From the IMG/VR virus record IMGVR_UViG_3300028405_000011, positions 1 to 33,681 of that record: a stretch of 33,681 nucleotides of DNA. One strand, given 5' to 3'. This DNA comes from a virus (Duplodnaviria > Caudoviricetes). A model generated the notes under the pieces. It was not told the DNA's origin. It saw only the letters and a list, made by a program, of their open reading frames with translations, and made no database searches. Position numbers and translations under genes: made by a program. Every line of letters starts with the position of its first letter. Positions within the stretch are counted from its first letter, which is position 1. Positions 8,513 to 29,709 of this stretch are shown here, one piece after another.

Positions 8513-9409
8513 TTATCGCCCCCAGAGGCTTCCGCCGCCAAAGATAGCAAGTGGGCCGAAGTCTTTTACGTTGTTCCATCCATCATTCATCAGGCCGCCG
8601 ATGTTGTCAGTCCAGCTTCGTTTATTGTTCTGTGTTGGTGCAGTAACAGATTGATAAGTCGGTGTGGTTGGTTCTTTGAACTGCATACCTGCAATACGTT
8701 CTTTGCTTGCACCGAGATATTTCTCAAGATCCATCTCTGTAGCACGATCAGCTGCAGCACGTGCGTTGGCTTGCTGCTCTTTCCATCGTTCAAGTTCGAG
8801 CTGTTTGTTTTGCATAAGGTTTTGATCTCGAGCACCGAACTGATCAGCGAGTAGTCCACGATCAGACTGGTTCTGGCCGTAGGCTGTGTTTCGTTGGTTG
8901 AGTAGTGTAGACCAAGCAGATTGCAGTGCGTTGAGGCCGTCTTCCTGGCTCTGGTAGTTGCCACCAGATACGTTGAAAACTTCCTGCAATGCACGGTTCG
9001 ATAGATCGTTATAGTCGGTTGCGGCATTTTGGTAGTTTGTGCCGAGGTAGTTGGCAGTGTTGCTCATCTGAGATTGCTGATCGCCCATAGCACGAGATCG
9101 TTGTGCTTCTGTGAGGCCAGTGCCGCCGTACTGTTGGCGGATCGACTCAGGTAGCTTGTTCATAGTCGTATTCATCTGATCGACGGCATCACGAGCACCC
9201 TGGTAAGTTCCACGTGCGGCGTTGATCTCGTCGGTGTTCATATACTCATTGCGAGCATCGGCATAAATATCGCCATAGTTTTGGCGACCATCGAACGCTG
9301 AGTTGTATTTTTCCCCAGCTGATCCAGCTTCTTTTTCGTACTGATTGTACGACTGCTTGCTGGCGTTGGCTGAACCTTGTGCATCAGATATTCTTTTACC
9401 GAAGTCCAT
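8513..9409 (-). CDS. Putative ejection/internal protein, coiled-coil (paralog B)
   Basis: Gln/Asn/Ala-rich; AAGGAG SD; shares KLPESI.QQ.GGTGLT.AQR with 9466..10302. Confidence 0.7.
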   Translation of the reverse strand: MDFGKRISDAQGSANASKQSYNQYEKEAGSAGEKYNSAFDGRQNYGDIYADARNEYMNTDEINAARGTYQGARDAVDQMNTTMNKLPESIRQQYGGTGLTEAQRSRAMGDQQSQMSNTANYLGTNYQNAATDYNDLSNRALQEVFNVSGGNYQSQEDGLNALQSAWSTLLNQRNTAYGQNQSDRGLLADQFGARDQNLMQNKQLELERWKEQQANARAAADRATEMDLEKYLGASKERIAGMQFKEPTTPTYQSVTAPTQNNKRSWTDNIGGLMNDGWNNVKDFGPLAIFGGGSLWGR

Positions 9410-9465
9410 ACGTCTATTCTCCTTGATTTTATGTTACCACGGATGGATAGAATAACCCTGGCCGA

Positions 9466-10302
9466 TTATGATCGATATTTTCCAGCATCCATACGCTTCA
9501 GGTACTCAGTGGTTGATAATTTTCCAGATTGGAACGCTGCAGTATCGGTGCGGAAGCTGTTATCTGCATCAGCTTTTTTCTTTGCCGAAGACTCTGCATA
9601 CGCCTGTCCAGCTTTCCGAGCGTTGGCCGCCGATTGTGTTTGGCCTGCCTTAAAGTTATTCATCCAGGTTTCAAACTCACGCTCTTCCTGCATCTGCTGT
9701 TGCTGGAACTTATCATTGTCATAGTCCATCTGAGTTTTTTGCAGTTGAGACTTGCTGCTGCCGTAAAGTTCAGACCACTTATCCTGGTTGCCGATACTTG
9801 TTTGCCAGTCGCTATATTTACGACGTACGCCATCCCAGTAGCTATCATATTGTTTATTTGATACATCAAGTGCACTATCAAATGCTTTATCAACGGTATC
9901 ATTATAGTTTGTGAACTGAGTTTCATAGTTGGCATTGTATTGAGTAAATTGTTTGCTCAGATCACCAAGTTGCTGCGACTTCGCCATATCACGCTGAGCC
10001 TGTGTGAGCCCCGTACCACCGAATTGCTGCGTGATCGACTCAGGCAATTTATCGATCTGAGTCTTCAGACCATCGGTTGTCTCTTTCGATTGTTTCCAGC
10101 TATTGTTGAGATCGGCGATCTCCTGAGTGTTCGTGAGGCTTTGTTTTTGCTGCTCGAGCACTGTCTGATATTTTGGTGCAGTAGAAAATGACGTATCATA
10201 AGCAGACTGAGCCTTGCCAGTCTCTTTCTTCGCCTTATCATAGGATGCTTTGGTTTGATCCCTGTAAGTCGTTGCTTCGTTGATGCGTTGCTTAAAGTCC
10301 AT
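9466..10302 (-). CDS. Putative ejection/internal protein, coiled-coil (paralog A)
   Basis: Gln/Lys-rich; aligns with the neighbouring ORF from the MDF..RI..A start. Confidence 0.7.
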   Translation of the reverse strand: MDFKQRINEATTYRDQTKASYDKAKKETGKAQSAYDTSFSTAPKYQTVLEQQKQSLTNTQEIADLNNSWKQSKETTDGLKTQIDKLPESITQQFGGTGLTQAQRDMAKSQQLGDLSKQFTQYNANYETQFTNYNDTVDKAFDSALDVSNKQYDSYWDGVRRKYSDWQTSIGNQDKWSELYGSSKSQLQKTQMDYDNDKFQQQQMQEEREFETWMNNFKAGQTQSAANARKAGQAYAESSAKKKADADNSFRTDTAAFQSGKLSTTEYLKRMDAGKYRS

Positions 10303-25543: not shown

Positions 25544-25765
25544 CTATTGAATTAAGAGAGAATATATACATTCACAACCACGACACTTCACCTCGACGGC
25601 TGGTACATCGGCGTTTATGATCACCTCCTGGCCTGCAGGTGCATCGAGTTGGATCGCTTTGATCTCACGGTTCACATTGCAGAACTTGCGGCCACACTTT
25701 ACGCAGCGTACATCGTGCCAGTCCTGGCTGTTTTCTTTGTCGAGTAGTATAACGATTGCGATCAT
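25544..25765 (-). CDS. Com-like zinc-ribbon protein
   Basis: DVRCVKCGRKF...EVKCRGC as in the Mu Com family; ATGA overlap with TerL. Confidence 0.7.
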   Translation of the reverse strand: MIAIVILLDKENSQDWHDVRCVKCGRKFCNVNREIKAIQLDAPAGQEVIINADVPAVEVKCRGCECIYSLLIQ

Positions 25766-27393
25766 TGTGTTTTCCAGTCTCCGCCGTGGCGTTTATTTGC
25801 GTTCATAATCAGTGAGGTAGTATCGATACCGAGATCCTTACGAGTGACGTTGGTGCCAGCTACGTACGACGGCTTCACTTTCTTGAGCATCTCACTCTTA
25901 CCGAATAGCTTACCACGTGTCTTGGATGCAGTCTGCAGCGTGTAGAACAATGCATCGAGTGCGTGATCTTCGTTGCCCTCATCTAGTCGCTCGCCGCCAG
26001 ACTCCTTGGCGTACACGATCGTCGGCAGCGTATCGATCAGGTAGGTACACGTACGGTGGATCTGCAGGCCAGCTTTGCCGTCGGCCTGGATCGCCATCAT
26101 ATCGTGCGTGGCATTCACTGCAGCTTTCTTGATGTCTTGAGTGAGCTTGTCGGCCTTGACGATACGTGGTCGCTTGATCTCTGGGGGCATAAGATCGAAT
26201 GCTTCTTTGATCCTGTCGGCCACTGGTTTGTTGCCGCCCAGGTGTGAGAATGCATCGTGCGGCAGTGCCAGCACATCGACTGGATCTATCTGTTGCATCT
26301 TGGCGATCTCATCCGCCCACCACTTCGGGTGCTTCTTGCTGTTGTGCATCTCACGGTATATGAATGATCGCTCGTCTTGCTCCGTGATCTGATCGAACGT
26401 AGCCCAGAGTACGACACACATATCGTTGTAGCCCCAGTCCATACCAGCGATACGGAACGACGTATCGAACCGCTCCTTGCTATAGCCCCACTCAGCGAAT
26501 GCGTTGAACACGTGCATATAGTCACGGAACTCTTCAAACACTGCACCAAACTGGATGTTCCAGTCACCCTCACGCCAGGCACGATATAGATCGGGGTTGC
26601 TTGTCTTCAGTGCTTCGAGCTGCATAACGTACTGAGGGTCGGCCTCCATCAGTATCGGGTTGCTATCGATCGTAGCTGGAATGTAAGCACGCCAGATGCC
26701 AGTGGCCTTGTCGATGATCGTTTGCCAGTGAGTGATCTTACGCTCGCCCTCTGCGGTGTACCAGACGTACTCGTGCTTGATCACATAGTTGAGCTTCAGG
26801 TCAGGTGTTACAAACCGCTTCTTCACCCAGGCCATACCGATACCACCAGGGTTGGCCGTGTTGAATATCTGAGGGAATAGATCCTTGTACTTCGATCGAG
26901 CCGAGCTGATCAGCTTCTCGTACATATCTTGCTTCGGGATCTGCGTGAGCTCCTCGATGTTAATACGGCAATACTCGTGCCCTTGGTACTTGGTGTAGGC
27001 ATCGTCATCTTTCAGGTGGCCGCCCAGGACACGCCCCAGGCCTTTACCTGATAAGATCATAGGGTTTCGGCGTAGCTTGCTTCCCAGGTGCTTGTACGCT
27101 TGCGAGGCACGGTCTTCAAAGTCTGAGAGATCCCCAGCATTGCGACGGATCACCAGCTGCTTCGCACGTGGATCAGGATAACGATCACCGATAATGGCGA
27201 TACTCAGGTCAGTCTTGCCTCCACCTCGAGCACCACCGTACAAGATCTCACGGTATCGTTTGTCTTTACTGATCACTGATGCAAGCTGTTGAGGGCCTGG
27301 CATCGGCACCCAGTAGCCCATCTCACGCATAGTAAGAGACTTGCTAACACGTAGCATCTGATCGAGATCGTCGCTAGTAGCAGCCTCTTCCAT
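25762..27393 (-). CDS. terL: Terminase large subunit
   Basis: Walker A GGARGGGKT, Walker B INIEE, TANPGG, nuclease motifs GMDWGY and EDHALDA. Confidence 0.95.
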   Translation of the reverse strand: MEEAATSDDLDQMLRVSKSLTMREMGYWVPMPGPQQLASVISKDKRYREILYGGARGGGKTDLSIAIIGDRYPDPRAKQLVIRRNAGDLSDFEDRASQAYKHLGSKLRRNPMILSGKGLGRVLGGHLKDDDAYTKYQGHEYCRINIEELTQIPKQDMYEKLISSARSKYKDLFPQIFNTANPGGIGMAWVKKRFVTPDLKLNYVIKHEYVWYTAEGERKITHWQTIIDKATGIWRAYIPATIDSNPILMEADPQYVMQLEALKTSNPDLYRAWREGDWNIQFGAVFEEFRDYMHVFNAFAEWGYSKERFDTSFRIAGMDWGYNDMCVVLWATFDQITEQDERSFIYREMHNSKKHPKWWADEIAKMQQIDPVDVLALPHDAFSHLGGNKPVADRIKEAFDLMPPEIKRPRIVKADKLTQDIKKAAVNATHDMMAIQADGKAGLQIHRTCTYLIDTLPTIVYAKESGGERLDEGNEDHALDALFYTLQTASKTRGKLFGKSEMLKKVKPSYVAGTNVTRKDLGIDTTSLIMNANKRHGGDWKTQ

Positions 27394-27930
27394 TTATTGA
27401 TCCATACGTTGCTGCTCAGGCAACTGTTCACGAATATCTTTGTCGATGAAGTCTTCAGGTGCAATAGGTAGGATGAAGCCACGGATCAGCGGCACGCCAT
27501 CTTCGGCCTTGAGGTTGGCATCCAGTTCACTCTTCGAGCCGTATACCATATACATCAGGCTATCGAACTCTTTGCTGTTCACACTCATCTTGCCAGTGTC
27601 TTCCTGCACGGTGAATACATTGAGTAAACGGCCAGAGGTTGCGACATCACCGATCTTAGCAGTGAGGTTGGTGTCCATATTGTGCTCAGTCTTTGCAAGC
27701 ATAATATCAGCGATCGTCATATCCTCGAGCATCGCCTCGAGCTTAGCACGTGGTGTCTTTGCTTTGTTCCACGATCCATCGTTACGGTTCTCAGGGTTGT
27801 CACTGAAGCCACCAACGCCAGCTGGATTACCTGATTGTCCAGGTGCAAACTTACCCCCCCCAGTTCTTTGTATCTCACCTGCTTGCTTTGTAGCAGGTTG
27901 CGTATCTGTTGTTTCTATGTTGTCGCTCAT
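27394..27930 (-). CDS. terS: Terminase small subunit
   Basis: GKFAPGQSGNPAG motif; abuts TerL; GGAG SD. Confidence 0.8.
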   Translation of the reverse strand: MSDNIETTDTQPATKQAGEIQRTGGGKFAPGQSGNPAGVGGFSDNPENRNDGSWNKAKTPRAKLEAMLEDMTIADIMLAKTEHNMDTNLTAKIGDVATSGRLLNVFTVQEDTGKMSVNSKEFDSLMYMVYGSKSELDANLKAEDGVPLIRGFILPIAPEDFIDKDIREQLPEQQRMDQ

Positions 27931-27939
27931 ACAACTCCC

Positions 27940-28230
27940 TTACCCTTTCTGCTCGCTACGCTCTATAGCTGCAGGCTTATTGATTAATCTCATCTTCTCA
28001 CGGTTCTTCTGTCTATGGCAAGGCATACACAGTACCTGCCAGTTGGTCATATCGAATGGATCGACTCGTGGATCCTCCACATCTTTGATATGGTCTACGG
28101 TCATAAGAGGTTTTGATAACTTATCGCCGCACTTCGCACACGACTGGCCGTACTTAAACACTCGCTTCAGTTCTTTGAACGCACTGTTGAGCTCAGGTGT
28201 ATTTGCTATCGATTGATAGAACAGACTCAT
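27940..28230 (-). CDS. HNH endonuclease (terminase-adjacent)
   Basis: CAKC...VDHI...NWQVLCMPCHRQK. Confidence 0.88.
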   Translation of the reverse strand: MSLFYQSIANTPELNSAFKELKRVFKYGQSCAKCGDKLSKPLMTVDHIKDVEDPRVDPFDMTNWQVLCMPCHRQKNREKMRLINKPAAIERSEQKG

Positions 28231-28287: not shown

Positions 28288-28296
28288 ATCATACCA
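28288..28296 (-). promoter_or_regulatory. Extended -10 promoter (TGgTATGAT) for the packaging operon
   Basis: Lies just after a terminator hairpin, upstream of HNH-TerS-TerL. Confidence 0.5.
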
Positions 28297-28327: not shown

Positions 28328-28382
28328 GATCAGGCGTATAGTAACATAGCATAGCTACATTACTTATAATATCATACGCTGC

Positions 28383-28412
28383 AAAAAAACAACCACCTTT
28401 TTCCAGGTGGTT
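28383..28412 (-). terminator. Intrinsic terminator
   Basis: AACCACCT-GGAAAA-AGGTGGTT then GTTTTTTT. Confidence 0.8.
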
Positions 28413-28547
28413 CTTTTCCATAAAGGCTCTCAGGCTTATTGCCTACCGCAGATGCGACGAGATACAGGTGCCTACATCTCACATTGGCTGCTACAAGCTA
28501 GGCGGTAGTCCTCACTTGGTTCATTGAGCTTTCGCTGCCGCACCTAC
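28383..28547 (-). ncRNA. Candidate ~165-nt structured non-coding RNA (family not recognised)
   Basis: 11-bp closing stem enclosing three hairpins, with several G-U pairs valid only on the minus strand; TGaTACTAT upstream and a terminator downstream. Confidence 0.6.
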
Positions 28548-28551
28548 TGCT

Positions 28552-28560
28552 ATAGTATCA
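28552..28560 (-). promoter_or_regulatory. Extended -10 promoter (TGaTACTAT) for the candidate RNA
   Basis: Overlaps the upstream stop codon; 4 nt before the first stem. Confidence 0.5.
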
Positions 28561-28764
28561 CTTCCATCCTTTCTCATAATAGTGATCTTTCTCGTGGCTC
28601 CTGTTGATCTTGGCCGCTTTGTTGCGAGCGTGGATCTGAGCACCTCTTGCTATCTTTGGATCGGTACCTGCAGGGATCCGCAGCGTAACGACACCCATAT
28701 AGCCCAGCCTGGCGAGCCGCTTGTAGTATGGTACCAGCGGCTCGAGTTTCTTACGCTTTGCCAC
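28558..28764 (-). CDS. Basic hypothetical protein (start probably GTG 28764)
   Basis: Lys/Arg-rich ORF overlapping the upstream stop. Confidence 0.55.
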   Translation of the reverse strand: MAKRKKLEPLVPYYKRLARLGYMGVVTLRIPAGTDPKIARGAQIHARNKAAKINRSHEKDHYYEKGWK

Positions 28765-28960
28765 TGAATGATGACATCTCTTTACAGTCGCCGCATCGCC
28801 CCTCGACTGCATCTGATCCGATCATAGTCAGGTTACTTGGCTCACCCTGCATCGTTGCACCGCAGCAGTTGCTGAGCTGCTCGTCACACCTGCCGCACTT
28901 GCAGTCTTGCAGTACGCCATCATCATCGTAGTAGCTAGGACACTGATACATTTCTACCAT
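28751..28960 (-). CDS. Small Cys-rich zinc-binding protein
   Basis: CxCxxC, SNCCGA and GRCxxCKE; GAAAGG SD. Confidence 0.65.
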   Translation of the reverse strand: MVEMYQCPSYYDDDGVLQDCKCGRCDEQLSNCCGATMQGEPSNLTMIGSDAVEGRCGDCKEMSSFSGKA

Positions 28961-29334: not shown

Positions 29335-29709
29335 CTATAGCTTACCGTCCGTCTCTTTTCTGTGGCACGTTCTGCATAGCAGCCGTACGTTTGTGATCAC
29401 CATTTTCGTCGCTGCACTGCGGCCACGGCCGATGATGTGTGCGACATCCAGGTTCTCGTACACCAGGTTGCCCAGGCTATCGTGTGCAGCCCTGGCTGGC
29501 CTGCTGCACTCCTGGCATATATTGCCGAAGACTCTGATCAGATGAGGCCTGGCGATCGTATCACGCCACTTCTCATACAGTACAGTCCGATCACCCCGCT
29601 GTTTGATCGGACTGGCTGACTTGATCGTGTGCTCACGGCATTTGTTCTGGATCGTATTGTACGCCATAAACGTGTTGCTGCAGCCTTTGATCTTGCAGGT
29701 ACGTTCCAT
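29335..29709 (-). CDS. NinG-like HNH endonuclease
   Basis: N-terminal C..C..F...N..Q..C finger, CQEC, LDVAHIIGRG and NVRLLCRTCH. Confidence 0.8.
   Translation of the reverse strand: MERTCKIKGCSNTFMAYNTIQNKCREHTIKSASPIKQRGDRTVLYEKWRDTIARPHLIRVFGNICQECSRPARAAHDSLGNLVYENLDVAHIIGRGRSAATKMVITNVRLLCRTCHRKETDGKL

Follow-up and report, generated by a model that had tools for sequence, protein, structure and literature searches.

A candidate structured RNA as variable cargo in a small-RNA slot upstream of the packaging genes of a phage with a likely Saccharibacteria host

The element at positions 28383-28560, minus strand, of the virus record IMGVR_UViG_3300028405_000011 (Duplodnaviria; Caudoviricetes) is best seen, from comparison with related phages, as a small-RNA slot in which promoter, tail and terminator are conserved and a 114-nt domain is variable cargo. 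The window, i.e. the whole stretch of DNA analyzed, is this record of 33,681 bases, and coordinates refer to it unless a relative is named.

The window phage belongs to one clade with the TM7 phage DolZOral124_53_65 (L190). Their large terminases (TerL) share 67% identity, many window genes have orthologs in that phage, and its record states a TM7 host. The host of the window phage, as judged from TerL and the record of this relative, is likely a member of Saccharibacteria (TM7); TerL was found in none of 401 genomes of the host order, Saccharimonadales. L241 has a TerL 70% identical to that of the window, and an alignment of 10037 bases with the sister strain L267 shows 97 differences (about 1% divergence). 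The phage genome also carries a GroEL-like chaperonin (2-1462; phrog_5725, E 7e-91), which is kept in L190 and G402 and lies on the strand opposite to the structural genes.

Anatomy and predicted fold of the element

The features of the element and its surroundings, all on the minus strand, are as follows.

28558..28812: basic ORF of 84 aa, no family assigned; at least 7 proteins among the matches listed, itself included
28552..28560: predicted extended -10 promoter, TGATACTAT, from sequence; predicted start about 28548-28545
28433..28546: variable cargo domain, 114 nt, missing in L241 and L192
28448..28547: predicted multibranch fold closed by P1; folding z -2.23 on the minus and +0.42 on the plus strand
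28547-28537 with 28458-28448: P1, 11 bp, three G-U pairs; pair probabilities 0.99-1.0
28527..28536: P2, 3-bp GNRA (GAAA) hairpin; pair probabilities 0.85-0.98
28494..28518: P3, 8 bp by folding, one G-A mismatch, 7-nt loop ACUACCG (28509-28503)
28459..28480: P5, 9-bp stem by folding, GCAC loop, two G-U pairs
28443..28447: GGUAG, candidate pseudoknot partner, by complementarity, of loop CUACC (28508-28504)
28418..28432: conserved tail UGAGAGCCUUUAUGG, consensus UGAGRGMCUUUAUG, from comparison with relatives
28383..28412: intrinsic terminator, 8-bp stem 28412-28391 and U7 28389-28383; related stem in L241, L192, L278 and L199
28299..28374: second cassette, with extended -10 TGATATTAT (28374-28366), 11-bp hairpin (28364-28340) and terminator (28327-28304)
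28288..28296: predicted own extended -10 of the HNH-TerS-TerL operon, TGGTATGAT, by motif
27940..28230: HNH endonuclease gene (PF01844, E 1.7e-08)
27394..27930: probable small terminase (TerS), by position; no family match; 31-37% orthologs in L190 and G402
25762..27393: large terminase (Terminase_3), by family match and the identity to DolZOral124_53_65 given above

The helices, the five G-U pairs, the promoter-like motif and the U7 terminator described in the first-pass annotation were reproduced at their positions by sequence inspection and folding, and the anatomy of the element is confirmed. P1 starts 5 nt after the extended -10, which overlaps the stop codon of the 84-aa ORF; the TGA of this stop is the source of the TG in the motif and serves as an anchor for orthology with L241. 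Main pairs of the predicted fold have probabilities above 0.9.

Support for the fold against chance is moderate and depends on the boundaries. The whole region gave z -3.27, with 0 of 200 shuffles as good, a value inflated by the included terminator. For the P1-closed 100-nt domain the minus-strand score of -2.23 was reached in 21 of 1000 shuffles, and the plus strand gave +0.42. Other boundaries gave -1.91 (28420-28547), -1.19 (28420-28550; 24 of 200 shuffles) and -0.37 (28434-28546, which clips P1). Shuffling produced a helix of at least 11 bp 17 times in 500 and a loop-to-tail duplex of at least 5 bp 451 times in 20000, in both cases with boundaries picked after the fold was seen. Regarding the proposed pseudoknot, the complementarity of CUACC and GGUAG and the competing local hairpin both hold, and the pseudoknot itself is a candidate; its pairing amounts to -8.1 kcal/mol as a duplex, versus -7.0 for the hairpin. 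GGUAG also has predicted alternatives, in the hairpin 28444-28432 and, for GGU 28447-28445, in pairing with the tail (probability about 0.6).

Lacking a -35, the element's site was not listed by the promoter scan. The minus strand of the window has 17 copies of the strict TGnTAYnAT motif, several of them within ORFs, so the motif is weak evidence alone. The real support for the promoter is its position, since the extended -10 is found at the same place in L241, L192, L278 and L199. A 9-mer identical to TGATACTAT also heads short units in L194 and L276. A stand-alone RNA with its own promoter and terminator, as originally proposed, is supported by the conservation of both positions in relatives and is also favored by the separate promoter-like motifs of the downstream cassette and the HNH gene; the element is probably transcribed as such an RNA. 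What had been described as one RNA of about 165 nt holds as a promoter-to-terminator unit and fails as a single conserved RNA, in that a 114-nt variable domain precedes the conserved tail and terminator.

Several features of the neighborhood were recorded. The 84-aa ORF has a 53% ortholog in G402 and shares its C-terminus with L241; used as a query, it found 0 viral loci. Four protein homologs of this ORF are 74-92% identical to it, and two homologs of TerL reach 84-88%. The portal gene also lies downstream of the element, after HNH, the probable TerS and TerL. Upstream, a strong consensus promoter at 29270-29241 (11/12, extended) would drive three small ORFs (28954-28558), among them one for a Cys-rich 69-aa protein, and its transcript would continue into the RNA cassette; these ORFs have no Pfam or PHROG match. 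A second HNH gene farther upstream (29335-29709), conserved in L190 and G402, has a terminator of its own behind it. On the plus strand, a promoter-like site at 28341-28370 faces the terminator, which scores on that strand too; this site may be a mere reflection of the AT-rich -10 of the second cassette.

The slot and its cargoes in related phages

At the orthologous site of L241, a relative reached through a weak profile match, the ORF ends in the same C-terminus and its stop codon again forms part of an extended -10; the tail UGAGGGACUUUAUGG begins 5 nt farther on and leads to a related terminator. The 114-nt domain is lacking, and the slot of L192 is likewise empty. The distance from -10 to tail is 119 nt in the window versus 5 nt in L241; the domain is therefore a 114-nt indel. 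In L199 a looser tail stands 6 nt after the -10, and in L278 a small hairpin occupies the empty-slot position and the tail lacks AUG. The tail of L241, L192 and L199 starts 5-6 nt past the -10, at the predicted 5' end.

With at most one mismatch, the tail was found in 4 of 21 TerL clusters (80 loci) versus 0.02 expected, a count that overstates significance because the motif was derived from the same loci in which it was counted. A looser tail precedes a related terminator in 2 further clusters, and 15 of the 21 have no tail before the terminator. Only 2 stretches in the whole viral collection matched the tail-plus-terminator pattern, both within the clade. With its AUG, the tail looks like a ribosome-binding site, but conserved reading frames are lacking. 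Its word occurs in 27 of 201 host genomes at scattered, mostly same-sense sites, several of which look like gene starts. Among the start regions of three phage genomes, no conserved mRNA or antisense target of the tail was found.

Other cargoes were observed at or near this site. In the slot of L190, a promoter-like motif leads into a multi-stem domain (about 190 nt) and a 66-nt tRNA-like module; the tail comes next, and a different terminator closes the unit, which has a folding z of -3.97. The multi-stem domain (about 8210-8025, minus strand) has a 10-bp closing helix, and inspection by eye suggests that two of its hairpin loops could kiss via UGUCAA and UUGACA. Homology between this domain and that of the window was considered and rejected after comparison. 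The unannotated tRNA-like module (8020-7955, minus strand), identical in the L273 cassette, has no D arm and carries G3-U70, A73 and CCA. It resembles the tRNA-like domain of tmRNA without the message, and its acceptor is like that of host tmRNA. ARAGORN misses it, and a tmRNA T-arm match has E 0.0017. Mimicry of a host RNA is suggested for this module only.

A rod-shaped RNA occupies neighboring cassettes in L192 (3585-3810), L241 (1410-1630) and L193 (6672-6850). Among the three sequences 8 of 23 pairs are changed on both sides, i.e. the rod covaries; its apex is conserved, and two small hairpins swap order between members. It has no Rfam match and was not found in 40 host-order genomes. A model of the rod (R2), searched over 55 sources including the window, matched nothing beyond the 3 sequences on which it was trained; although the two have one 10-nt word in common, membership of the window domain in the rod family was rejected. 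In the sister strain L267 (296-560), the hairpin loop of the second cassette contains a 191-192-nt rod insert (z -1.9) that ends in the word CUUUAUG, and the hairpin still pairs through two one-sided changes. Structured modules thus come and go at this site even at a strain identity of about 99%.

Searches for homologs and known RNA families

The search for homologs of the domain returned identical copies only, in L267, L269 and L283, along with the related slot in relatives of the clade. Between the window and L267 the domain has zero changes, which is uninformative at about 1% divergence, and the searches yielded no diverged homolog from which covariation of the domain could be read. A covariance model of the domain gave 0 matches in 92 clade loci, 5 whole relatives, 151 host-order genomes and 90 pattern-matched viral loci; 94 further loci yielded only 4 fragments of the seed hairpin, and 7 loci searched with filters off returned the sister copy only. 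No homolog was found by blastn against 50,697 phage records or in viral pattern scans (94, 90 and 65 stretches), and a plasmid search gave one chance match of 47 nt. Searches of host-order genomes found no host RNA resembling the domain or the rod. A DNA search of 401 such genomes gave 7 short matches, of which one was inspected: a 20-mer in a Saccharimonadales genome, in-frame and same-sense inside an ORF that is presumably pyrB-like. About one such match is expected in 596 Gb, and it was rejected as a chance hit.

The window has no match in Rfam 15 at the gathering cut-off, and the best sub-threshold scores were 15.5, 15.1, 11.4 and 11.3 bits (E 2-6). ARAGORN likewise reported 0 genes, in agreement with the earlier view that the element falls outside known families. 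A tRNA or tmRNA was rejected: the fold is four-way, but it has an 11-bp P1, no T-loop word and no CCA. The element words 28524-28510 and 28492-28487 presumably resemble the loop strands of SRP RNA helix 8 (RF00169), but they are predicted in a different helix and there is no model match. A mimic of SRP RNA was also rejected: the helix-8 covariance model gave 0 candidates at E <= 10, and the Ffh M domain (PF02978) was missing from all 101 Saccharimonadales genomes searched, against its detection in 14 of 14 controls, a count that depends on the inferred host and on genomes that may be incomplete. In the host-order genomes (G001-G401), SRP RNA exceeded the cut-off in 0 of 41, tmRNA in 3 of 4, and cas1 was present in 1 of 401; on this last count, a CRISPR mimic is unlikely as the main reading.

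The known self-cleaving ribozymes (hammerhead, HDV-like, twister, twister-sister, pistol and hatchet) gave no Rfam match at E <= 10, and a comparison by eye with their catalytic cores gave none either; on a ribozyme reading of the fold the evidence is neutral, neither supporting nor excluding it. Group I and group II introns require particular end nucleotides, which the insert boundaries do not have, and both were rejected. A 6S link was set aside with RF00013 in 0 of 4 host genomes, a weak result with only 5 of 14 controls positive. Type III antitoxins, as described in PMC12283969, have tandem pseudoknot repeats between promoter and terminator. The promoter-RNA-terminator layout is present here, but the domain is single-copy in the window genome, there are no tandem pseudoknot repeats and no toxin family lies downstream, and an antitoxin or its mimic was rejected.

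Possible functions and related systems

Fast turnover of compact folded modules, a constitutive site and one tRNA/tmRNA-like member favor, as a tentative best explanation, a decoy RNA that would act in trans by binding a protein factor of the inferred Saccharibacteria host, carried as one interchangeable cargo. The host sigma-70 polymerase would start near 28547 and stop at 28383, early and without phage factors. P1 would join the 5' end to 28448 and form a compact, nuclease-resistant domain, whose shape may titrate a host RNA-binding protein, e.g. a defense nuclease or a translation-rescue factor. Differing host targets would account for the fast cargo turnover, and the tail could serve as a common handle, either bound by a protein or stabilizing the RNA. 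The slot indel, the conserved tail, the different cargoes at the site and the strand-specific fold speak for the decoy; the singleton domain, a z of only about -2, the absence of a similar host RNA from the searches and the 15 of 21 clusters without the tail speak against it. A broader version, which is unlikely, would make the site an RNA payload slot before the packaging genes, with constitutive promoter, swappable modules, shared tail and terminator, as an all-RNA counterpart of anti-defense hotspots. Its modules would be a four-way pseudoknotted domain, a D-armless alanine tRNA/tmRNA mimic and covarying rods, a picture equally hard to credit in which each new fold would act against a different host protein.

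The functional RNA may instead be a short sRNA of tail plus terminator, with the cargo as its switch or processing module. A ligand or protein could induce the pseudoknot of loop and GGUAG and free the tail, or an unknown ribozyme fold could restore the 5' end of the empty version. This is an unlikely reading in either variant. It fits the tail at the predicted 5' end in L241, L192 and L199, the GGU-tail pairing (about 0.6), the competition of the pseudoknot (-8.1) with the local hairpin (-7.0 kcal/mol) and the tRNA-like processing signal upstream of the L190 tail, but no ribozyme or riboswitch family is significant (the best, Guanidine-I, reaches 11.3 of the required 63 bits, E 5.9), and the tail has no conserved mRNA target in the three phage genomes and only the scattered, mostly same-sense sites in 27 of 201 host genomes. 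To a similar degree it is doubtful that the insert is neutral or decaying sequence from phage recombination, with a fold partly due to chance and only promoter, tail and terminator of importance. The singleton domain, z values from -0.4 to -2.2 by boundaries, and the loose match between the insert's 3' end and the promoter region of L241, as though an older promoter had been displaced, would agree with this. Yet P1 opens at the predicted start and has its closing strand just within the indel, the fold is strand-asymmetric, and other cargoes at the site are clearly structured, one of them covarying.

Two further readings connect the element with the downstream genes. In an arrangement comparable to the antitermination of lambda pR'-tR', it could be a cis attenuator controlling read-through into HNH-TerS-TerL, being on the same strand directly upstream of these genes; a 64-aa ORF from the tail AUG overlaps the HNH start. 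This is improbable. The terminator pairs have probabilities of 0.97-1.0; the cheapest fold without the terminator costs 12.2 kcal/mol and leaves the domain unused. Between the element and these genes lie another promoter-terminator pair and the -10 that belongs to HNH itself. The 64-aa ORF is interrupted by a stop in L267 and has no homolog in other loci, and it was rejected as a gene. With no competing antiterminator and this unfolding cost, the suggested regulation of late genes through termination control is disfavored by the folding models. Least probable is a packaging part, either an RNA partner of HNH or terminase like pRNA, or a tail acting as a DNA signal (pac, operator). The element adjoins HNH-TerS-TerL and the tail is conserved by sequence rather than structure, but relatives with orthologous HNH, TerS and TerL have no domain, and the tail is missing from most clusters, all of which must package DNA. 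The partnership with HNH or terminase proposed at first is disfavored because relatives with the same gene block lack the domain. Tail-like words at the end of terS were rejected as a signal, being coding sequence (LRGF).

The pRNA of phi29 is essential to its packaging motor. The cabRNA of staphylococcal phages is reported to arise from terminase genes themselves (PMC10686824). Both resemble the present element in being structured phage RNAs tied to packaging genes; the element, however, lies upstream of the terminase genes with its own terminator, unlike cabRNA, and its domain is missing in close relatives, unlike pRNA. In ykkC/Guanidine-I (RF00442), P3 and the 3' end resemble the hairpin 28447-28427 and the tail in a local match (E 5.9). 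In contrast to that riboswitch, the element scores 11.3 bits against 63, the P1 core is skipped in the alignment, and a constitutive terminator is present with no regulated gene before it.

For the preferred decoy reading, two phage RNAs are of interest: the pseudo-ToxI of PhiTE is an RNA decoy (PMC3475682), and the tRNA-Tyr of T5 is reported to act against retrons (10.1101/2023.03.15.532788). Like these, the slot is a non-coding phage locus that varies fast among relatives, with a possible pseudoknot and, in L190, a tRNA-like module; unlike them, the element has no tandem repeats and no identified copied host RNA, toxin or defense system. Racr and Cracr (10.1101/2024.10.29.618823) are likewise small RNAs of phages, arranged in multiplexed units, that combine a short single-stranded stretch with a hairpin, but in the element no repeat-spacer layout was seen by eye and the tail is conserved, not variable.

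The literature searched on phages of Saccharibacteria or Patescibacteria and structured RNA gave no description of such an ncRNA or slot, and phage handling of Saccharibacteria hosts is little explored. A fixed slot with exchangeable folds provides natural presence/absence pairs (window and L241, window and L267), and its several uncatalogued folds can be made and tested in vitro. Should they act as decoys, whatever they bind would lead to unknown factors of defense or translation in these bacteria; should the domain fold be chance, leads would still be left in the covarying rod, the tmRNA-like module and the conserved tail RNA.

GOLLD, ROOL and the T4 stable RNAs C and D are orphan structured phage ncRNAs, and the candidate structured RNAs of PMC10690425 were compared along with them. 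The element is like them in its intergenic position, its own promoter and terminator and the tRNA-like neighbor in one relative; it differs in that it has no Rfam match, is far smaller than GOLLD or ROOL and places exchangeable cargo ahead of a common tail. Some cassettes, especially the abundant block of the oral clade, may be among those published candidates. Two further intergenic units were seen in the clade. One, of about 100 nt, comprises promoter, hairpin and terminator with variable loops upstream of the terminase genes (L230, about 9370-9470; also L297, L231 and L209). The other, a conserved block some 320 nt long, lies roughly 2 kb upstream of TerL in L328 (7749-8075), L242, L208, L226, L294 and others; it has no Rfam match in L328, and its many variants in a large sub-clade make it suited to covariation analysis.
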